This document shows, piece after piece, positions 5,304 to 35,226 of a stretch of 58,530 bases of DNA. Position numbers and translations under genes: made by a program. The first letter of the stretch is position 1; each line of letters starts with the position of its first letter. Source of the stretch: a candidate division WOR-3 bacterium (lineage in GTDB: Bacteria; Hydrothermota; Tepidihabitantia; Tepidihabitantales; DTDR01); contig JANXBG010000007.1 of the NCBI GenBank assembly GCA_025060715.1, positions 1 through 58,530 on the forward strand, written 5' to 3'. Below the pieces are notes generated by a model. It saw nothing but the letters and a program-made list of their open reading frames with translations. It was not told where the DNA came from and ran no database searches.

Positions 5304-7774
5304 TTTATCGCTCCTTTTAAATAAATAATTTTTTTGAAATTTTTATCTTTTTTTACAAAATAAATCCCTGTCCTTAAATTCTTTTTATAAATCTTTCCAA
5401 TTACAGAAAAAATTTCTTCCTCTTTAAAATCTAATTTAGAAATAATTTTTGTTTTTTTAATATCTTCTAAAAAAAGATAATTTTTCTTCACAATCTTAGC
5501 ATAAACATCCCATCCTTTATGTCTTCTATTATCAATCCAAGAGAAACAGAGAAAATTATTTATTGAAGAAATACTTTGAGATAAAATCCATTGGTTATTT
5601 CCAAAAAACCAATCAGGCTCATGAACCAACCGATTATTACTAATCTTATTACCAAAATAATCAAACCTTTGAGCATAAACATCCACATCACCATATCCTT
5701 TTCTAAAATCACAAAAAGTAATTACAAACTCACCATCAGCAGTAAAACTTATTGATGGAGAATATTGATCATATACGGTATGATCATCATTTACCAATAT
5801 ATTTCTACCAATCCTCTCACCATTAATTTTAAAAATTTGACAATAAATATCAGTATTACCGTTTCTTTCATCTTCCCAACTAACTACAATTATTGAATCC
5901 TTAAAAGCACAAGTAGGATAACCTTGAAAATTATTTGTTATATCATTTACTAAAATACTAGGATTATTGCCAATTTTTAAATAAATATTATATTCACCTA
6001 AACGATTATCCATCCAAGTAAATATTGGCAAAGTATCAGCAAAAGTTATAAATCCATATAATGCGTCCCCTTCATTATTATCACTTATTTTAAAATTATT
6101 ACCAATTTTATTTCCTAAGGAATCAAAAAATTGTCCATATATTGCGCCATTTTCTTCCCTGTGATCAGTCCAAATCACTAAAAATTTCCCTGTGGAAGAA
6201 CTTGCCACAATAGGCCAATCTTGAAAATTGTTATTAGTATCATCATTTATTTTAAAATTCCTACCAATTAAATTTCCAAAAGGGGTTATTATTTGACCAT
6301 AAATATCCGTGTTTCCTTTTCTCAAGGATAACCAAGCAACAAGAGCTTTATTATAGCAGTTTAATCCGAAGGATGGAAAAAAATTATAACTAACTTCACT
6401 TATTTTTTTATTGGGAATTAAAAAATTTCCTAAGGTGTCAAAAAAAGTTGCATAAATATGACACTCTTCTTTCCGCTCATCTTCCCAACAGATTCCAAAG
6501 AATTGTTGATTAGCAGAAATAAAGGGACATCTTTGATGAGAAGAAGCATAATCATTATTGATTTTAAAATTGTTACCAATTTTTATATTATTTTCATCAT
6601 AAAACTGGGCATAAATATCATCGTTTCCTTCTCTTTTATCTTGCCATAAAATTAGATGAGAATTGTTAGAAAGGGAAACAACCCAAGGAGAATTTTGAGA
6701 CAAATTAGACAAGTCATCATTAACTAATTCATTATTTCCAATTCTTATTCCTTCTTGGGTTAATCGTTGTTTATAAATATCCCAATTGCCTCTTCTTTCA
6801 CAACTAAAAGCGATAATGAAATTTCCTAAAGTGTCAGCGGAACAGCTCGGTGAATTTTGATTTGCTAATGTATTATCATCGTTGATAAGAAAATTATTAC
6901 CTATTCTTCGGTTTAAGGAATCAAAAATTTGGGCGTAGATATCCCAATTGCCATTCCTTTCATCTTCCCAGACTACTAACCAATAATTATTTTTGTTTAC
7001 GTAAATTCTTGGAGAAAATTGCCAGGCAGAAGTATTATCGTCATTAATTTTAAAATTATTGCCAATACGATTTCCATAAAAATCAAAAATCTGACAGTAT
7101 ATATCCCAATTACCATTTCTCCCATCCTCCCAAAGGATTATAAATTGACCATTACTTTTTACCCCAATGCTTGCTGAATATTGCCAAGCAAATCCGATAG
7201 GATCATCATTAACTCGTAAATTATTACCTATTTTATTACCATTTTCGTCAAAAATTTGTAGATAAATATCTCCATAATCATTTCGCCAATCTTCCCAAAC
7301 GATTACAAATTTTCTATTTGGTAGGAAGGCTATTGATACCCCTCTTTGGTCTTGGGAAGTATTGTCATCATTTGCTTTCCGATTATTGAAAAGCCTGTTT
7401 CCTAAAGAATCATAAATTTGATAATAAATATCAGAATTACAATTTCTTCTATCTTCCCAAGCAACCGCAATTCGGTTATCAAAAAACGCAACTGCTGGTT
7501 CACCTTTCCATCTTAAACCTCCATCATCACTTACCCTTTCTTCTTCCATTAATCTTTGACCATTCAAATTAAGAATTAAAAAGTAGGGAGAGGAGTTGCC
7601 ATCTCGGAAATCACTAAAGGTAATTGCTATTCTTCCTCCCCAGGAGATACCTTTTGGTAGTTCCTGAGTTGCGCCACCTATATTATCATCGTTTATCAAA
7701 AAATCATTTCTAATAATTGAATCCCTTATCTCTCCTTTCAAGTATAAAATTAATAAAATTAACAAAAGTCTCAT
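5300..7774 (-). CDS. Secreted 14-repeat (probable beta-propeller) protein with short T9SS-like C-terminal tail
   Basis: Signal peptide MRLLLILLILYL; 14 repeats of about 56 aa with consensus WEDxRxGNxDIYxQxFDxxGNxIGNNFxINDD; tail LRTGIYFVKK..KKIIYLK. Confidence 0.85.
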   Translation of the reverse strand: MRLLLILLILYLKGEIRDSIIRNDFLINDDNIGGATQELPKGISWGGRIAITFSDFRDGNSSPYFLILNLNGQRLMEEERVSDDGGLRWKGEPAVAFFDNRIAVAWEDRRNCNSDIYYQIYDSLGNRLFNNRKANDDNTSQDQRGVSIAFLPNRKFVIVWEDWRNDYGDIYLQIFDENGNKIGNNLRVNDDPIGFAWQYSASIGVKSNGQFIILWEDGRNGNWDIYCQIFDFYGNRIGNNFKINDDNTSAWQFSPRIYVNKNNYWLVVWEDERNGNWDIYAQIFDSLNRRIGNNFLINDDNTLANQNSPSCSADTLGNFIIAFSCERRGNWDIYKQRLTQEGIRIGNNELVNDDLSNLSQNSPWVVSLSNNSHLILWQDKREGNDDIYAQFYDENNIKIGNNFKINNDYASSHQRCPFISANQQFFGICWEDERKEECHIYATFFDTLGNFLIPNKKISEVSYNFFPSFGLNCYNKALVAWLSLRKGNTDIYGQIITPFGNLIGRNFKINDDTNNNFQDWPIVASSSTGKFLVIWTDHREENGAIYGQFFDSLGNKIGNNFKISDNNEGDALYGFITFADTLPIFTWMDNRLGEYNIYLKIGNNPSILVNDITNNFQGYPTCAFKDSIIVVSWEDERNGNTDIYCQIFKINGERIGRNILVNDDHTVYDQYSPSISFTADGEFVITFCDFRKGYGDVDVYAQRFDYFGNKISNNRLVHEPDWFFGNNQWILSQSISSINNFLCFSWIDNRRHKGWDVYAKIVKKNYLFLEDIKKTKIISKLDFKEEEIFSVIGKIYKKNLRTGIYFVKKDKNFKKIIYLKGAIK

Positions 7775-10700
7775 TTCACAATGCCAAATTTATAGTATCT
7801 TACTTCTTTTGTATCAGAAAAACTAATTTCTAATTTTAAAAGATAAACACCGCTTTTAAACTTTTTAATATCAATCTCATATTCATTATCAATCACTTTT
7901 ATGTTCTTTATTTTTCTTTCTAATAATTTCTTAAAGGAGAAATCATAAATTTCAATTTTTGCTTCAATCGCTTCTTTTGTGGTTTTAAATCGTAAATATC
8001 CTCTTTGGTCATTGATTGTAATCGGATTAGGATAAACATAAAAATAATTGATAAGAGATTTATTAGAAATTGCCTCTTTTTCTAATTTTTTTAAAATTCT
8101 TCCATCCCTTTCGGTTGTTGATAATTTTGTCTGCCAAAATATATCTTTCTCTTTTCCAAAAGTATTATATACATATAAATATCTATCCTCAGTAGTTAAA
8201 ATTAATTCAATCAAGGAATCATTATCTAAATCGGTAATAAAAGGAACAGTTTTTATTCCTCCGGTAGTAAATAATCTTTGCTGATTATTTATAGAAACAC
8301 CAAAATTCGGAAGACCAGCAAAGATATCGCAAATTTCGTTACCATCAAAATCACCGATAATTGGCGAAGTATAAAAATAAAAGGGTATTTCTTCATAAAA
8401 AAGATAGCCGTTTAAAATTATTTCTTTAAGATAAATAGAATCAAAAATAATTGGAAAGTTTTCGATTAAGGTAAGATTATAATTAAAAGCAAAAATTTTA
8501 TTTTTGCTGAAAGTTATAATATCATAATTTTTATCGTTGTTCACATCACCAATTGCTATATAAGAAAAAGCAGGATATTCCATAATTTCTTTGGAAGAAT
8601 ACTTAATATCTCCTTCCGGAGAGATAATAAATAATTTATAATTTAAGTTAATGGGAACTAATAAAAGAATCTCTTTATTTTTATCATTATCAAAATCAAA
8701 AACTATTGGAGAAGAAGGAGAAGAAAAAGGAGAATAGGAGAGAGAAATTGGAAAACCATTTTTCATTCTTCCTTCAAAAGATACCAAATGCAATTGATTA
8801 TTATCAGTAAGAATAACAATGTAAGAATCACAAATAGCCGGTGTTAATTTTATTTTTCCGATAAGTTTTATTGGAAAATTCTCTTTTATTCTTCCTTCCC
8901 CATTAATTATATATAAATATCCTTTTTCTGTTCCAACAATGATTTCTTTTTTGTTATTATTATCGATATCATATAGCAATACTTCGCTTTTTATTTCACC
9001 ATTTAAAAACAGATCAAAGAGGACATTACCAAAAGCATCAATAACAACTATTCGTTCGTAGGAAATAACCACAATTTCTAACATACTATCACCCGTAATA
9101 TCACCTATAGATAAATCTGAGGTTATCTCTAAAGGTAATTGACAAAGAATTTCATATCCCAAATAAGGTTCTCCATTGGGTTCGTAAGCATAAATTATTC
9201 CCGTTGAGCAAGGAACAATTACTTCTTTTATTCCATCACAATTTAAGTCCTTTCCTAAAGGAGATAATAAAGGTTCGGAAAAATTTCTTATCAATTCCTT
9301 CTTTAACAATTTGTTTTTAAAAGAAAAATACATAATTGTTTCTGGTTCAGAATGGATATAAAATTGGTAATAAGTTTTCCCATAATAACCATCGCTACTA
9401 GGAGAAGTATTTTCGGTTAGGCTATCTAAAAAACCGCCTTTAAAAAAAGGGTCATATTTAGAACCGACCATCTCATAATAATCTTGATAAATAAATTTAT
9501 CAAAATCCTGAATTCCGTCAGCTTCTACTAAATCAACCCCTTTATGAGAAGGATTGATATTTATGGCATTATAGGGTCCGTATTCCCTAATTATTTTTTC
9601 ATCAATATGCCAGATTAAAATTCCGCTTCCAGCCAGGAAAAAATCATATTCACCGTCTTCAACACCAATAACAACCCCATTTTCTCTTTTAACAACAATC
9701 GTATCTTTTTTACGTATATCTGTTTGACGATTTTCAATCAAAAAATATTCATCTTCAGAAATAGGAATTTTATAAATAAAAGTTAAAGTTTCTCTTTCAG
9801 AAAATAATAAAGAGTCCATACACATTGTAAAACAAGCCAAATTATTAGTTGATAAATTAACAACTTTGGGTTCTACAAAACCAAATAAAATTTTATGAAA
9901 AGGATCAAGAGAAGAAGGAATTGTTCCTGGTGGGCAATCATGACTACCAAGCCAACCGCCATATCCCATTAAACTCCAGCCACCAACTCCCATAGAATGC
10001 CCGGTAACGTCATATAAATCATAACCACCGAGAGGATGAACAAACTCATGGGCAAGAAGCCCCAGCATCCCCATCATTCCGTAATAATTAATCCCTCCTT
10101 CATATAAAGTATCCTGCCTTGTCATTTCGGGCAAAATACAGGCAATATCAATTCTTTTTTTACCATTGTCAACTTCAATATAGGGTTTTCCTAAATAATA
10201 TTCTAAGGCTTCACTGTTAATTGTGGCTGCCCATAAATCAAAAGGCGAATTTTCTTTTATATCAGTTTGGGCACAAGAGCCAGCATGAAAAATTATAAAA
10301 TAGTCATAATCACTAAAATTAATATTAGTATCTTGGTCAGCAATAGTAAAAGCATCTTCCATTAATCGACACAATCCCATTTCTACTCCCCGAAAATCGT
10401 AATTGGGCCATTTCCACATAGTATCACCATAATATTTCATTTCGTATGGTAATTGATAGGCATCTAAAACTCCCTCTGGCATTACTTTAAATTCAATATG
10501 AAGCTTTCCTAAGGAATTATGCCAAAAATAATTTCTTAGTCCTAATAAAAGATTTTCAAAATATTTCTTAGTATGGGGAGGGTCATAATAAAGTCCATCT
10601 TCTTCGGTTAAAAATCCTTTTAAATCCATTTTTCCATTTCCAGTAGTTAAAGTATCGTTATCTTCTTTAAATTCTACTCTAATTGCTAATACTCTTATCG

Positions 10701-10998
10701 TATCAATATTTCTTTTATTTAAAGCAAGTTTTTTGGGTAATGAATATATATTTTTATTTCTTCTTGATTTATACAAGGAAAATCTTTTTATTATTTTGGA
10801 ATAAAAATTTGTTTCTCTAAAATTCTCTTTTCTTTTTAATGTAAGAGTTTGACCGAAAATTAAATTAAAGATAAAAAAAATGATAAAAAGCGGAGAGGGA
10901 GGGATTCGAACCCCCGACCCACTTTTAAGTGGGTTCGCGATTTCGAGTCGCGCGCCTTCGTCCACTCGGCCACCTCTCCTATTTAATCTTATTTTCAT
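7771..10998 (-). CDS. M6 (immune inhibitor A-like) zinc metalloprotease with FG-GAP/VCBS-like repeats and T9SS-type C-terminal domain; true start uncertain
   Basis: IRVLAIRVEF, IIFHAG, AHEFVHPLGGYDLYD (HExxH), WSLMGYG Met-turn, EYFLIENRQ, GILIWHID; repeated DxDxDGxxEI motifs; YPNP...SGVYLLKL tail. The first ~36 codons overlap tRNA-Ser. Confidence 0.88.
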   Translation of the reverse strand: MKIRLNRRGGRVDEGARLEIANPLKSGSGVRIPPSPLFIIFFIFNLIFGQTLTLKRKENFRETNFYSKIIKRFSLYKSRRNKNIYSLPKKLALNKRNIDTIRVLAIRVEFKEDNDTLTTGNGKMDLKGFLTEEDGLYYDPPHTKKYFENLLLGLRNYFWHNSLGKLHIEFKVMPEGVLDAYQLPYEMKYYGDTMWKWPNYDFRGVEMGLCRLMEDAFTIADQDTNINFSDYDYFIIFHAGSCAQTDIKENSPFDLWAATINSEALEYYLGKPYIEVDNGKKRIDIACILPEMTRQDTLYEGGINYYGMMGMLGLLAHEFVHPLGGYDLYDVTGHSMGVGGWSLMGYGGWLGSHDCPPGTIPSSLDPFHKILFGFVEPKVVNLSTNNLACFTMCMDSLLFSERETLTFIYKIPISEDEYFLIENRQTDIRKKDTIVVKRENGVVIGVEDGEYDFFLAGSGILIWHIDEKIIREYGPYNAININPSHKGVDLVEADGIQDFDKFIYQDYYEMVGSKYDPFFKGGFLDSLTENTSPSSDGYYGKTYYQFYIHSEPETIMYFSFKNKLLKKELIRNFSEPLLSPLGKDLNCDGIKEVIVPCSTGIIYAYEPNGEPYLGYEILCQLPLEITSDLSIGDITGDSMLEIVVISYERIVVIDAFGNVLFDLFLNGEIKSEVLLYDIDNNNKKEIIVGTEKGYLYIINGEGRIKENFPIKLIGKIKLTPAICDSYIVILTDNNQLHLVSFEGRMKNGFPISLSYSPFSSPSSPIVFDFDNDKNKEILLLVPINLNYKLFIISPEGDIKYSSKEIMEYPAFSYIAIGDVNNDKNYDIITFSKNKIFAFNYNLTLIENFPIIFDSIYLKEIILNGYLFYEEIPFYFYTSPIIGDFDGNEICDIFAGLPNFGVSINNQQRLFTTGGIKTVPFITDLDNDSLIELILTTEDRYLYVYNTFGKEKDIFWQTKLSTTERDGRILKKLEKEAISNKSLINYFYVYPNPITINDQRGYLRFKTTKEAIEAKIEIYDFSFKKLLERKIKNIKVIDNEYEIDIKKFKSGVYLLKLEISFSDTKEVRYYKFGIVK
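10891..10979 (-). tRNA. tRNA-Ser(CGA)
   Basis: GGAGAGG/CCTCTCC acceptor stem, anticodon arm CGCGA-CTCGAAA-TCGCG, long variable arm, GTTCGAATC T-loop, G discriminator; CCA not encoded. Confidence 0.95.
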
Positions 10999-11444
10999 TT
11001 TCTCTTCTTTTCAAAAAACTTTTTTAACAAAAATTTTGTTTCTTCCTCTTTTATTCCACTAATTACCTCAACTTTTCCCTTAATAGAATTATAAAATTCA
11101 GGGTAATTTGAAAAAAAGCCAAACTTTTCTTCTTTAGTTCCGTATACAATTCTTTTTATTCTTGCTAATAATATTGCTCCCATACACATCAAACAAGGTT
11201 CACAAGTGATATAAATAGTAGCTCCTTTTAATCGCCAATCTTTTAAATAATTACTGGCAGAAGAGAGTGCAATTATTTCTGCATGGGCAGTGGGATCTTT
11301 TAGTTTTTCTACCTGATTATGTCCTCTACCAATAATTTTATTTTTATGAACTATTACCGCACCTATTGGTACCTCATTTTCTTTTAAAGCAAGCTCTGCT
11401 TCTTTTATTGCTTCTTCCATAAAAGAAATGTCTAAAAATTTCAT
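10995..11444 (-). CDS. tadA: tRNA adenosine(34) deaminase
   Basis: EVPIGAVIV, DPTAHAEI, TCEPCLMCMGAI zinc motifs, C-terminal FFEKKR. Confidence 0.93.
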   Translation of the reverse strand: MKFLDISFMEEAIKEAELALKENEVPIGAVIVHKNKIIGRGHNQVEKLKDPTAHAEIIALSSASNYLKDWRLKGATIYITCEPCLMCMGAILLARIKRIVYGTKEEKFGFFSNYPEFYNSIKGKVEVISGIKEEETKFLLKKFFEKKRK

Positions 11445-11452
11445 AAAATCTA

Positions 11453-11526
11453 TGCGCCCGAGAGGACTCGAACCTCCAGCCTACGGATTCGTAGTCCGTC
11501 GCTCTCTCCAATTGAGCTACGGGCGC
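11453..11526 (-). tRNA. tRNA-Arg(ACG)
   Basis: GCGCCCG/CGGGCGC stem, TAGCTCAATTGGAGAGAGC D-arm, ACGGA-CTACGAA-TCCGT anticodon arm, GTTCGAGTC; no CCA. Confidence 0.96.
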
Positions 11527-11541
11527 ATTTTTTTAACTATT

Positions 11542-11569
11542 ATTTTACTTAATAATCCTAATTTTTCAA
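11542..11569 (-). promoter_or_regulatory. Sigma70-type promoter of the tRNA-Arg/tadA operon
   Basis: TTGAAA-N16-TAAAAT, 15 nt upstream of the tRNA. Confidence 0.6.
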
Positions 11570-11627
11570 GATTTATTGGTTTTATTTATTTGATTTTTGA
11601 AAGATTTTATTTTATAATTAACTTTAT

Positions 11628-13130
11628 ATGGAAAATTATGTTTTATTTTTAGAAAAAGAAATAGAAAAAAAGAAAAAAGAAGCAATTGATTTACTTAATA
11701 AAGAGAAAAACGGAATTATTCTATTGAATGAACAGGAAAAGGAGAGATTGAAAAGAATAGCACTGGGTGAAAAATTTTTTTCTGAAGATGAAAAAGAAAA
11801 AATAGAAGAAATTTTAAATCTTTCTTTTTTTTCTTATCAGGAATTTTTAAATCAACCTGAATGTTTCGATGAAAAAATCATCGCAATTGAAAAAGTAATT
11901 GGCAGTGCTTCCAGTTTTATTTATCCTTTAATAATTATTTCTTCTAAAAATTCTCAAGAGGTTTTAGAAATTAGTTCAGAGTTCAGCAAGATTTATTTTT
12001 TAGTAAAAGAAAAATTTAATGAGAAATTTTCTAAACTGAACAAAGGAAAAGAGTATCGGCTTAATTTTCTTATGGCACTAAGGGATATTCTATTAGAATT
12101 ACGACCTCAATTGATCGATGATTTTATTAATTTGAAAGAAGCGATTATTTATTACCAAATGCGAAAAAAAATACCTTTCTTATATCTTTTAATTATTGAA
12201 ATTTATATTTTAAAAATGTTTAACTATTTTTTAAATTTTGTTAAAAGAGAAAAGGATTTTCTTTTAGCAATAAAAGTGGATAATAAATTGCTTTATTGGG
12301 AAGTTGCGTATTCTTCACCCCTTTCTTATGTTCCGGTTGATTTTGGTTTAACAATTTCCTTTCTTCAATTTTTTAGTTATTATGTTAATTTTTATTCCAG
12401 CAAAATAAATAATTACAATTTAGCAATTAGAAATTTGGAATTTTTGAGAAAAATTTTAGAAAGCAAAAAATTATTAGGAAAGGAATATTTTTTAACTTTA
12501 AAAAATCTTTCTTTGCTTTATTTAGGAAAAGAAGATTTAGTGAATGCTAAAAAGATTGCAGAAATTTTTTGTAGAGTTAATCCCAATTCCTATGAAGGTT
12601 ATCTTTTACTTGGTAATATTTTAGCAAAAAAACAGGAATATGAAGAGGCTTTAAAATTATATGAAAAAATTTTGAGTTTTGACTTTTTTGAAGAAGAAAA
12701 AGAAAATGTTCTATCTCAAGTATATTGTAATCAAGGGTATATTTTTTTAAATCTCAATAAAATAGCAGAAGCGATTGAAAGTTTCCAAAAAGCTTTGGAG
12801 TTAAAACCTAATTATTTTGAAGCCTATTTTAATTTGGGCAATGCTTATTTTCAAAAAAGAGATTTTTCCTTAGCTGAAAAAAATTATCAAAAGGCATTGA
12901 AATTAAACAAAAGAATACCAATGGTCTATTTCCAATTAGGAAGGCTTTATACCGAATGGAATAAGAAAGAAAAAGCAATTCAATATTACAAAAAATTGAT
13001 TGCTTTAGAACCTAATAATTATATGGGTTTATATAATTTAGGGCTTTTGTATCGGGATTTGGGAAAGAAGGAAGAAGCAGCAAAATATTTAGAAAAGGCA
13101 ATAAGATTAAATCCTAATTTAGGAAAATGA
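11628..13130 (+). CDS. Tetratricopeptide repeat protein with uncharacterised N-terminal half
   Basis: C-terminal TPR units (EAYFNLGNAYF, MVYFQLGRLY, GLYNLGLLY); promoter TTGATT-N17-TATAAT upstream. Confidence 0.88.
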   Translation: MENYVLFLEKEIEKKKKEAIDLLNKEKNGIILLNEQEKERLKRIALGEKFFSEDEKEKIEEILNLSFFSYQEFLNQPECFDEKIIAIEKVIGSASSFIYPLIIISSKNSQEVLEISSEFSKIYFLVKEKFNEKFSKLNKGKEYRLNFLMALRDILLELRPQLIDDFINLKEAIIYYQMRKKIPFLYLLIIEIYILKMFNYFLNFVKREKDFLLAIKVDNKLLYWEVAYSSPLSYVPVDFGLTISFLQFFSYYVNFYSSKINNYNLAIRNLEFLRKILESKKLLGKEYFLTLKNLSLLYLGKEDLVNAKKIAEIFCRVNPNSYEGYLLLGNILAKKQEYEEALKLYEKILSFDFFEEEKENVLSQVYCNQGYIFLNLNKIAEAIESFQKALELKPNYFEAYFNLGNAYFQKRDFSLAEKNYQKALKLNKRIPMVYFQLGRLYTEWNKKEKAIQYYKKLIALEPNNYMGLYNLGLLYRDLGKKEEAAKYLEKAIRLNPNLGK

Positions 13131-33049: not shown

Positions 33050-33063
33050 ACTATTTTTTACTC

Positions 33064-33137
33064 TGCCCCTGGTGAGATTCGAACTCACGGCCTACAGTTT
33101 AGGAAACTGTCGCTCTTTCCAACTGAGCTACAGGGGC
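33064..33137 (-). tRNA. tRNA-Arg(CCT)
   Basis: GCCCCTG/CAGGGGC stem, ACAGT-TTCCTAA-ACTGT anticodon arm, GTTCGAATC; no CCA. Confidence 0.95.
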
Positions 33138-33150
33138 ATTTTTAAACCTA

Positions 33151-33245
33151 CGGAGAGGGTGGGATTCGAACCCACGGTCCATCCTTTTAGGGATGGACTT
33201 CCGCTTAGCAAGCGGATGCCTTAGACCAATCTCGGCCACCTCTCC
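33151..33245 (-). tRNA. tRNA-Ser(GCT)
   Basis: GGAGAGG/CCTCTCC stem, TCCGC-TTGCTAA-GCGGA, long variable arm GTCCATCC/GGATGGAC; no CCA. Confidence 0.95.
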
Positions 33246-33249
33246 AAGA

Positions 33250-33336
33250 CGGAGGGTGAGGGATTTGAACCCCCATGTCGCTTTTCGCGACGGCGGATTT
33301 CAAGTCCGCTGCCTTACCAGATTAGGCTAACCCTCC
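33250..33336 (-). tRNA. tRNA-Ser(TGA)
   Basis: GGAGGGT/ACCCTCC stem, GCGGA-CTTGAAA-TCCGC, variable arm GTCGC/GCGAC, GTTCAAATC; no CCA. Confidence 0.95.
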
Positions 33337-33354
33337 AAAAATTTTACTATAATA

Positions 33355-33383
33355 ATTATGCCAAGAAAAAAATTTTATGTCAA
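33355..33383 (-). promoter_or_regulatory. Promoter of the tRNA-Ser-Ser-Arg operon
   Basis: TTGACA-N17-CATAAT with extended -10 TG. Confidence 0.7.
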
Positions 33384-33437
33384 TTAAATTGATTAAGAGT
33401 GTTAGGTTAAATTTATCCGTATAAAAGTTGGCTGTTG

Positions 33438-33465
33438 TTGAAAAATTTATTTTTTTATGTAAAAT
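33438..33465 (+). promoter_or_regulatory. Promoter of tRNA-Gln
   Basis: TTGAAA-N16-TAAAAT, 9 nt upstream of the tRNA. Confidence 0.6.
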
Positions 33466-33474
33466 TTTATAAAC

Positions 33475-33546
33475 TGGGGGATCGTCTAACTGGCAGGACA
33501 TCTGACTCTGGATCAGATGGTCGGGGTTCGAATCCCTGTCCCCCAG
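33475..33546 (+). tRNA. tRNA-Gln(CTG)
   Basis: TGGGGGA/TCCCCCA stem, TCTGA-CTCTGGA-TCAGA anticodon arm, GTTCGAATC; no CCA. Confidence 0.95.
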
Positions 33547-35226
33547 CTAAAATTTTTTCAATATTTCTCTTATCTCTTTTATTTTTTCTTTTTCACCAAT
33601 TTTTTCTAAAAAATAAATATTAGCATTTATCATTTTTATATAATAATCCAAAATTAAATTTTCTCGCTCATCCAAAATCTTATTTGGCTTTCGATAACGG
33701 AAATTTTTAAACTCATAATATTCATACTCTAAAGTATCTTTAATTTGTAAAGCTAAAAAATAGGGAACAAGTTTTTTATTTAAAAGTACACTTTTTAAAT
33801 CGTAATCATTTAAATTTAAATAGATAAGATAAGCCCTCTCTTTTTTATTTTCAATAAAACTATAAAGTAAATTTATATAAGCCCTCTGAATTCCAAAATT
33901 ATCTTTCAATCTATTATATTCAAACTGGTAAAGATATTTTTCATATTCTTCTAATTCTTTTTTTACTCTGTTTGTCAAATCCGGATAAACTTTTCTTAAA
34001 TAATCTAAATAAAAGGTTCTTCTTAAAAGTTCCTTATCAATGATAATCAAATCTTTACGAAAATTTTTTAAATAACGAAAATATAATGAGGGTGAATAAA
34101 AATCCCACCAATCAGTTAATATTAATGAATTCTCGGGTAAAGATTTCAAAATATTGTAGACAAAATCATAGGCTAAATAAAAATCTCTTTTATTATTTTT
34201 TTGATAATTAAAGATGAGTAATATTAAAAAAGTGATAAAAAAAAATGCTAATTTTATAATTTTTTTAGAGAAAATTTTGATATTTAAAAATCCATAAGAA
34301 GAGAATATGATTAAAGGAATAAAGGCAGGTAAATAATAGGGTTGAATATCAGGAATACTATAATTTATTGAATTTAAAATGCCGATACTAATTGTCAAAA
34401 TTAAAATTATTGCTAATTCCAAATTTTTCTTTAAAAGAAGATAAATTCCCAAAATTGCTAAAAAGAAATAAAGATAAAGCATTTCTTTAATTAAAAAACT
34501 TATTTCGCTAAGAAAATTTTTTATCACTTCGTTAAAAGGTAAAGAAAAAGACCAAACACGATATTGCCGACCACTAATATGCCAAAAAAGTCTTAAAATA
34601 TCCTTCGGGTTTCCCCAATTAAATAATGGTTCGGAATTAGCCCTAATTAAAAGATAAAAATAAAGAGATATACCCAGCAAAAATAAAAAGATAAAAGGTA
34701 AGAGTTTTTTTCTTTTTAAAATAAAATAGAAGAAAATGGGCAAAATTATTGAAAGCAACATTAAATGATGGGTTAAAGCTATACCTAAAATATATGCAAT
34801 AAAAAGAAAATTATTTTTCTCTCTCTTTAAAAATAGATATATTAATAGAATAAGAAAAAAAGCAGTTAAAGAATAGACTTCTATTTCGTTAACGATTGAC
34901 CAAAAAAGATTACTAAAAGAAAAAAGGGTAAGATAAATTAAAGAGACAATTTTATCTTTGGTAATTTCTTTAATCAAAAAATATAGAAGAATAATTGCTC
35001 CAAAACCGACTAAAAAAGAAAAAAGGTTTCCTTTAAAAGCTGGCTCAGAAAAAGGTAAAAGAAAAAATACTTTGCCTAGTAAAGTAAATAAAGGATAACC
35101 GGTGGGATGTAAAATATTTAAGTAGTGAATACTAAAAATAATCTCACCAGAATCAATTAAACCAACTGTTGGTGAAAGGGTAGAAAAAAGAATGAGAAAA
35201 ATGATAAAAAAATAAAGATAAATCAA
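33547..35226 (-). CDS. DUF2723 (TMEM260/GT117-like) GT-C membrane glycosyltransferase
   Basis: DSGE..., HPTGYPLFTLLG, EVYSL, THH, YLLIRA..P..NWGNP; many TM segments. Confidence 0.85.
   Translation of the reverse strand: MIYLYFFIIFLILFSTLSPTVGLIDSGEIIFSIHYLNILHPTGYPLFTLLGKVFFLLPFSEPAFKGNLFSFLVGFGAIILLYFLIKEITKDKIVSLIYLTLFSFSNLFWSIVNEIEVYSLTAFFLILLIYLFLKREKNNFLFIAYILGIALTHHLMLLSIILPIFFYFILKRKKLLPFIFLFLLGISLYFYLLIRANSEPLFNWGNPKDILRLFWHISGRQYRVWSFSLPFNEVIKNFLSEISFLIKEMLYLYFFLAILGIYLLLKKNLELAIILILTISIGILNSINYSIPDIQPYYLPAFIPLIIFSSYGFLNIKIFSKKIIKLAFFFITFLILLIFNYQKNNKRDFYLAYDFVYNILKSLPENSLILTDWWDFYSPSLYFRYLKNFRKDLIIIDKELLRRTFYLDYLRKVYPDLTNRVKKELEEYEKYLYQFEYNRLKDNFGIQRAYINLLYSFIENKKERAYLIYLNLNDYDLKSVLLNKKLVPYFLALQIKDTLEYEYYEFKNFRYRKPNKILDERENLILDYYIKMINANIYFLEKIGEKEKIKEIREILKKF

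Follow-up and report, generated by a model that had tools for sequence, protein, structure and literature searches.

Transfer RNAs and messages are known to share one transcript in the tufB operon of E. coli and in mitochondria, where tRNAs punctuate the messages, and the AUU start codon of infC is a known case of initiation at a codon other than AUG. The closest described system to the locus reported here is selC, the gene for tRNA-Sec, which has been predicted on bioinformatic evidence to be nested within the selB open reading frame (ORF) of Alphaproteobacteria (Mukai 2021, PMC8124441). This was the only report of a tRNA nested in a bacterial ORF that was found in the literature, and nothing was found on the lineage studied here. 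The present analysis concerns a 58,530-nucleotide (nt) stretch of DNA (the window) from a genus of uncultured hot-spring bacteria, which an NCBI label assigns to candidate division WOR-3. On the minus strand of the window, the gene for a secreted M6 metalloprotease follows directly on the tRNA-Ser(CGA) gene, with no canonical start codon between the tRNA and the hydrophobic core of its signal peptide, and the only conserved start codon lies on the far side of the tRNA, at the stop codon of the tRNA adenosine deaminase gene tadA. We lean, with little more than even confidence, toward the reading that translation of the protease begins at this ATG and passes through a working tRNA-Ser(CGA) gene.

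As in the tufB operon and in mitochondrial punctuation, tRNAs and messages would lie here on one transcript whose processing sets the message ends. In those systems, however, the tRNA is an untranslated element between ORFs, whereas here the only conserved start precedes the tRNA. The likeness to selC and selB (Mukai 2021, PMC8124441) is that a complete tRNA gene lies on the same strand inside a bacterial ORF with the frame kept across species, that stop/start overlaps hint at translational coupling, and that tRNA processing and full-length translation are proposed as alternatives, with bioinformatic evidence in both cases. There, the tRNA forms a C-terminal extension of the factor that binds that very tRNA (PMC8124441), whereas here it would form the front of a cleavable signal peptide on an unrelated secreted protease. 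The present case also differs in phylum, in that the gene would depend on read-through of the tRNA for its only conserved start, and in that outgroups reveal the ancestral state and a single origin. By analogy, the locus in the window can be described as a variant of the nesting of tRNA genes in ORFs, an arrangement that so far has only been predicted.

A protease reading frame that runs through a tRNA gene

The ORF listing contains a single minus-strand frame (7771-10998, 1075 amino acids) that spans the whole of the tRNA-Ser gene (10891..10979, 89 nt). As the initial annotation of the window had claimed, this frame is open through the tRNA and back to an ATG (10996..10998) that overlaps the tadA stop codon in the sequence ATGA. 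The spacer between the ATG and the tRNA (AAA ATA AGA TTA AAT A, 10980..10995) encodes K I R L N and supplies the first base of the next codon, and translation of the tRNA in this frame gives RGGRVDEGARLEIANPLKSGSGVRIPPSP. The signal peptide has its hydrophobic core and cleavage region in LFIIFFIFNLIFGQ (10849..10890), which begins at 10890, the first base past the tRNA; this region matches the core of the normal signal peptides of outgroups and can be aligned with them. The remainder of the frame (7771..10848, including the stop codon) encodes the body of the protease.

There is no in-frame ATG, GTG or TTG between the tRNA and the core in the window, and both of these observations agree with what had been noted at the outset. 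The further claim that no canonical start follows the tRNA stood only in part: the next in-frame ATG is indeed far downstream, at codon 88 after the tRNA (codon 124 of the ORF), but an in-frame TTG 39 codons past the tRNA (10774..10776) had been omitted. This TTG is used as the start in the automatic gene call on the window contig (P0005). It was rejected as the real start because it lies past the signal core and is not conserved, with K or H at this position in the relatives.

The tRNA-Ser gene has a length of 89 nt (3n+2) in all members of the genus, and reading of the tRNA is therefore required to bring the upstream ATG into frame with the protease. An intron-like excision of the tRNA with rejoining of its flanks was considered and discarded, because precise removal of 89 nt shifts the frame of the ATG into a stop codon. 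A miscalled ATG or another assembly slip can also be ruled out, because 10546-11300 is covered by contigs from three DNA runs, made in two studies, that do not differ in a single letter (one of the three runs may be the window's own source).

Start codons inside and outside the genus

A search for the protease in 41 genomes of the window's order found a match in all 41, and 20 loci were fetched. A genome-contig scan contributed a single close locus (L021, which matches L004 in its translated N-terminus). From metagenomes came a further genus-type species (L024/L025) and two loci resembling those of family f4 (L027 and L028), and a protein search yielded two more genus-type species (P0001 and P0002). 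The genus is thus represented by eight species-level sequences, six of them loci with DNA (L001-L005 and L024) and two of them called proteins (P0001 and P0002), and the set outside the genus consists of 17 loci (L006-L020, L027 and L028). The block of tRNA-Arg, tadA, tRNA-Ser(CGA) and protease is kept across the whole order: the tRNA-Ser gene was found in 19 of the 20 fetched loci and the upstream tRNA-Arg gene in 18, and the missing cases (one and two, respectively) are cut by contig ends.

Outside the genus, every locus (17 of 17) has a canonical start and a leader containing K or R between the tRNA and the core. These starts, read from the translations, are ATG in 15 cases and GTG or TTG in two, and they lie 8 to about 60 nt past the tRNA-Ser gene. 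In outgroup L007, for example, the protein begins MKENHQKKKNW-LIFFSLLYFFFSGYGQ from an ATG 8 nt past the tRNA. Inside the genus, the core abuts the tRNA and the normal start is missing in all eight sequences. In each of the six genus loci, the 38 codons that follow the tRNA contain no ATG, GTG or TTG, which leaves no AUG there for a leaderless message; the first canonical in-frame start after the tRNA is found at codon 39, 88, 67, 47, 68 or 65, always past the core and never at a conserved position. No orthologue in the genus carries an ATG where the window has ATC or ATT. A likeness between the string MKNW before the tRNA and the KKKNW of the L007 leader was judged to be due to chance, as it is absent in L005 and L024; the W codon of MKNW borrows the first two bases of the tRNA.

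In a quick maximum-likelihood tree, the eight genus-type sequences form one clade (support of 100 in the SH-like approximate likelihood ratio test, SH-aLRT), which is sister to family f4, a family with normal starts. Since they form a single clade, the arrangement arose once. The core itself varies in length across the genus (21, 24 or 33 nt to a conserved Asn codon), and all of these changes are multiples of three.

Conservation of the upstream ATG

All eight genus sequences (the six DNA loci and the two called proteins) carry an ATG in frame, either at the tadA stop codon or directly next to it. It occurs in four configurations, which are ATGA, TAATG, TAA-T-ATG and TAATAATG. The distances from the ATG to the tRNA are 19, 10, 13, 13, 13, 4, 4 and 7 nt, giving five different lengths that all follow the rule 3n+1, with no stop codon in between. 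L005 and L024 differ in length by 1 nt upstream of the ATG, which indicates that the frame is kept only downstream of it. In L002, a change of the tadA stop from TGA to TAA has destroyed the ATGA start, and the next codon has changed from ATA to ATG, so that the start has shifted by one codon.

Two controls were available for these counts. In the frame used by the protease, the open stretch that precedes the tRNA contains an ATG in 0 of 16 outgroup loci compared to 6 of 6 genus loci, and in the other two frames of the genus loci an ATG before the tRNA was found in 0 of 12 cases. Taken with the spacings and the regained ATG of L002, these counts indicate that the frame across the tRNA is kept among the relatives beyond what the tRNA sequence itself enforces.

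The initial annotation had proposed a dual-coding tRNA and had left coincidence open. The alignment of orthologues favors dual coding, in view of the frame and in-frame ATG in all eight sequences and of length changes that keep the frame, and these sequence comparisons make pure coincidence appear unlikely. We give very little credence to the reading that the start codon was simply lost, that expression of the gene is weak or absent, and that the ATG is an accident of the A-rich end of tadA (AAA TGA). An ATGA does form automatically wherever TGA is preceded by a codon with A in its third position, as in L001, L003 and L004, and two to three of the three frames of the tRNA are open. However, the ATG is also kept outside the ATGA overlap, in L002, L005, L024 and P0002, and it has no counterpart in this frame in the outgroups. 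Decay is also at odds with the protease itself, for which the ratio of nonsynonymous to synonymous substitution rates (dN/dS) is 0.09-0.14 over about 1030 codons (10 genus pairs) and for which the frame is intact in every species despite a G+C content of about 29% in the window. Because the synonymous rate (dS) of these pairs is 0.64-1.45, neutral sites have been heavily turned over, and a neutral triplet would not be expected to survive in all lineages.

The protease and its annotation

The protease ORF contains the Pfam domains Peptidase_M6, FG-GAP and Por_Secre_tail. Peptidase M6 (PF05547, immune inhibitor A-like) was matched with 38.7 bits against a cut-off of 22, with the zinc motif HEFVH visible in the translation, and the C-terminal sorting domain of the type IX secretion system (T9SS), Por_Secre_tail (PF18962), was matched at residues 988-1058 with 30.6 bits against a cut-off of 27. 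Together with the FG-GAP/beta-propeller repeats, these domains identify the protease as secreted T9SS cargo, and the protein of a sister species is named 'immune inhibitor A domain-containing protein' in an NCBI record. The substitution rates given above indicate, at the level of sequence, that the protease is under purifying selection and is a functional gene.

The automatic annotation of these proteins (P0001-P0005) is inconsistent. Three of the proteins are called from the upstream ATG and contain the peptide encoded by the tRNA, while the NCBI record for the L002 species (P0004) starts at an ATC within the T-loop ('MPPSPFFLF..') and P0005 starts at the TTG at 10776-10774, past the signal core. 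The locus is thus also relevant to annotation, in that automatic calling has used three different starts, two of which drop or truncate the export signal. In terms of the type of export signal, a twin-arginine (Tat) signal suggested by the string NRRGG in the window was rejected, because the RR pair is absent in L002-L004.

Status of the tRNA-Ser(CGA) gene

The tRNA-Ser(CGA) gene was identified by ARAGORN and by Rfam (RF00005), which matched it at full length with 57.7 bits against a gathering score of 29 and placed it on the minus strand with ends at 10890/10891-10979. It extends over 89 nt to the discriminator G, and the CCA end is not encoded. The cloverleaf, the long variable arm, the serine anticodon and the G discriminator are all in place; G73 is an identity element of tRNA-Ser. 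It is the sole copy of tRNA-Ser(CGA) among the 46 tRNA genes of the genome. An analysis of 17 of the 22 tRNA-Ser(CGA) copies revealed compensatory changes in 9 of 26 base pairs, two of which, in the variable arm, separate lineages inside the genus, and the cloverleaf is kept throughout. Taken together, these comparisons indicate that the tRNA is still a working gene under purifying selection. RNase P RNA is present in the genome, and in a search of the genome for the RNase Z family the best match reached 41 bits against a cut-off of 293.

A separate cluster of tRNA genes lies at 33063-33547 of the window, with Arg(CCT), Ser(GCT) and Ser(TGA) on the minus strand and Gln(CTG) on the plus strand. 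Because UCG could in principle also be decoded by tRNA-Ser(TGA) through wobble pairing, the need for tRNA-Ser(CGA) may not be absolute.

By itself, a stop-free frame across the tRNA is unremarkable and not beyond chance, and the case rests for that reason on the comparison with relatives. The tRNA-Ser gene is G+C-rich within an A+T-rich genome. In families f2, f3 and f5, a TGA within the anticodon stem interrupts the frame in use. Stop codons in the tRNA frame combined with a normal downstream start, which the initial annotation had named as an observation that would tell against its reading, were found in other families only, where they represent the ancestral state.

The tRNA also contains an in-frame GTG in the D-loop (10965-10963), as well as in-frame ATC codons, one of them at 10905-10903. 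A start at this GTG, with the GGAGAGG of the acceptor stem 7 nt upstream serving as a Shine-Dalgarno sequence, would make the ATG unnecessary while the tRNA would still be read. The GTG is in frame in all six genus loci, and sequences resembling GGAGG precede many starts in the genome. The same 5′ frame with the same GTG is also open at another junction of a tRNA-Ser gene and an ORF, on contig C55 of the same genome, where there is no upstream ATG; that junction, however, looks like an insertion seen only in this genome. We consider a start at the GTG improbable. Both GGAGAGG and GTG belong to every copy of the tRNA, those of all outgroups included, and being part of the conserved tRNA sequence the pair is no independent signal. 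Both elements are moreover paired or buried in the folded tRNA, and the conserved ATG and the frame-keeping spacer would be left unexplained.

Possible initiation at codons other than AUG

The initial annotation had offered, as its second possibility, a near-leaderless message that would be released by tRNA processing and would start at ATC or ATT. In its general form, this places the start at an ATC, ATT or ATA (ATH) codon just after the tRNA or in its last codons, and the upstream ATG would be irrelevant. We regard it as rather unlikely, although it is the main rival reading and draws on several observations. All six genus loci have ATH codons among the 7 codons that follow the tRNA, and the start assigned in P0004 is an ATC in the T-loop. 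Genes that begin 8 to 12 nt past a tRNA without a Shine-Dalgarno sequence are common in the genome, tadA included. With genes so close to tRNA ends, messages released by tRNA processing are plausible, and such messages were the ancestral state for the protease.

Further weight for a non-AUG start comes from truD (contig C11:21332-22516 of the window's own genome, G000; locus L055:233-1417, plus strand), in which no canonical start precedes the conserved KPEDF motif. Where the f4 outgroup has its ATG, four genus genomes have ATA and one has ATT, so that all five have a codon other than ATG. In G000 this ATA overlaps the TAA stop codon of the upstream gene (ATAA). This suggests, from sequence, that coupled initiation at non-AUG codons is tolerated in the genus. 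If the protease started in this way, initiation of the infC type would apply, and truD looks like such a case; the protease, unlike infC, has no non-AUG codon that is conserved in position. In addition, truD owes its context of coupled re-initiation to a stop/start overlap that is absent at the ATH codons of the protease.

The predicted products of such a start also weigh against it. In the window, initiation just after the tRNA would yield (M)IFFIFNLIFGQ, from a processed or an unprocessed message, which would be a very short signal peptide without a charged residue. Across the genus, the export signal would have 10 to 15 residues and no positive charge. The position of the ATH codons is not conserved, as some loci have them at codon 3, whereas in L002 and L003 none occurs before codons 5-7, which would leave a peptide of about 10 residues ahead of the cleavage site. 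Leaderless translation strongly prefers an AUG at the very 5′ end. Of the possibility raised in the initial annotation, the tolerance of ATA and ATT starts has thus gained ground through truD, but the conserved in-frame ATG in eight of eight sequences, the 3n+1 rule over five spacings and the regained ATG of L002 are left without an explanation.

Proposed translation through the tRNA

The reading that we favor by a little, a start at the ATG at the tadA stop codon, would work as follows. One transcript would carry tRNA-Arg, tadA, tRNA-Ser and the protease. Ribosomes that end the translation of tadA would restart at the overlapping ATG, probably by coupling, and would read the tRNA before it has folded. 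The tRNA would add 29 codons, which together with the codons of the spacer would form a long leader of about 36 residues with a net positive charge for the general secretory (Sec) pathway, and signal peptidase would remove the whole stretch, leader and core. Two fates would then be open to each transcript and would exclude one another. If RNase P and 3′ processing free the tRNA, the protease message is left without a canonical start codon; if the RNA stays unprocessed, its translation yields the protease precursor.

In terms of origin, the ancestor would have had the order that is still seen in the sister family, namely tRNA, short spacer, ATG, K-rich leader and core. A deletion would have taken out the spacer, the ATG and the leader, and an in-frame ATG upstream of a tRNA without stop codons would have taken over. 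The strongest form of this proposal holds that translation of tRNA-Ser as the front part of a Sec signal is obligatory, that tRNA maturation and synthesis of the T9SS protease are mutually exclusive, and that the arrangement goes back to a single deletion and has been kept by selection through the diversification of the genus. Based on the sequence comparisons, we consider this form about as apt to prove wrong as right.

Several points weigh against translation from the upstream ATG. The proposal as a whole is built on comparative sequence, and two of the eight genus sequences (P0001 and P0002) are products of gene callers that were seen as protein only. Because the genus sequences form a single clade, part of the conservation in eight of eight is inheritance. 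The frame in use is already open in the sister family f4, where the protease starts normally, and the number of stop-free frames of the tRNA is two of three in the window and two to three of three across the genus. The tRNA must remain uncut on the molecules that are translated; with RNase P RNA present in the genome, cutting would be expected to proceed in competition with translation and to generate non-stop fragments. It is also unusual for a hydrophobic core to be preceded by a leader of about 36 residues. The apparent tolerance of non-AUG starts in the genus, as in truD, would make the ATG less necessary. Finally, a second, weak promoter-like match (TTGAAA-17 nt-TAAGAT, 9 of 12 positions) is no better than matches in shuffled sequence, and transcripts from this site would begin approximately at the 5′ end of the tRNA and would lack the ATG.

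If translation does pass through the tRNA, the locus would contain a built-in switch that links tRNA processing and the translation of tadA to the output of the protease. A bacterial tRNA gene would also serve as the 5′-terminal coding sequence of an essential part of a protein gene, and a gene without a start codon of its own would have been rescued by reading through a neighboring gene for a structured RNA. It would also provide a second, independent bacterial example beside the predicted nesting of selC in selB, with a clear ancestral state. The arrangement raises the question of how tRNA processing and translation are balanced on one RNA where tRNAs punctuate messages.

The putative operon upstream of the protease

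The minus-strand order is a promoter-like site, tRNA-Arg(ACG), tadA, tRNA-Ser(CGA) and the 1075-codon frame of the M6 protease. The promoter-like site (TTGAAA-16 nt-TAAAAT, 11542..11569, minus strand) has 10 of 12 matches to the consensus and lies about 15 nt before the tRNA-Arg gene; it may be the operon promoter, as a consensus match. The tRNA-Arg(ACG) gene (11452..11527, minus strand), the first gene of the conserved block, was found by ARAGORN and by Rfam (71.5 bits). The tadA gene (10995..11444, minus strand) matches the Pfam families MafB19-deam (124.8 bits) and dCMP_cyt_deam_1 (106.8 bits), and with a deaminase domain of the cytidine deaminase (CDA) type and a length of about 150 amino acids it has the features of its family. 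Its ATG lies 8 nt past the 3′ end of tRNA-Arg, and its TGA stop codon is at 10997-10995. No terminator-like site was found in 10300-11800, and this, together with the promoter-like site before tRNA-Arg, makes co-transcription of tRNA-Arg, tadA, tRNA-Ser and the protease plausible. The scanned region contained 7 promoter-like sites, compared to 6.1 expected from shuffled sequences.

Other junctions and start anomalies in the genome

The junction on contig C55 of G000 (C55:73546-74567; locus L035:2007-3071, plus strand) has a similar appearance to that of the protease. A tRNA-Ser(GGA) gene is followed directly by VLLIIIIFFFPNISEA|EKK.., a signal core, and the gene encodes an outer-membrane-like protein of about 311 amino acids. 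The frame is open through the tRNA, with in-frame GTG codons in the tRNA and no upstream ATG. A paralogue on contig C11 has a normal leader (MGFFNKKK). No orthologue of the C55 gene was found in the 40 relatives searched, and three sister genomes have the same tRNA-Ser(GGA) gene followed by an aminotransferase gene with an ATG. From these comparisons, the C55 junction looks like an insertion at the 3′ end of the tRNA that is specific to G000. With no orthologue in the 40 relatives and a different, ATG-started gene in the three sisters, it was set aside as independent support for the protease case.

Contig C22 of G000 carries three long open frames, from 19801 and 21150 on the plus strand and from 780 of the reverse strand on the minus strand. 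They have 467, 618 and 906 codons, and their first canonical start lies 26 to 53 codons past the upstream stop codon. These may be further cases of non-canonical starts, or they may be broken genes. On the minus strand of contig C85, from 31574 of the reverse strand, a 344-codon open frame has no start for 58 codons; it resembles release factor 2 with its programmed +1 frameshift, and we take it to be an ordinary case.

Several genes of G000 start 8 to 20 nt past the 3′ end of a tRNA without a Shine-Dalgarno sequence, and tadA is among them, 8 nt past tRNA-Arg (11444-11452 of the window). Most of the tRNA genes of G000 have T-rich trailers (tttttatttt), which translate as F, L or I in any frame. 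These trailers may ease deletions that fuse the end of a tRNA to the T-rich sequence of a signal core.

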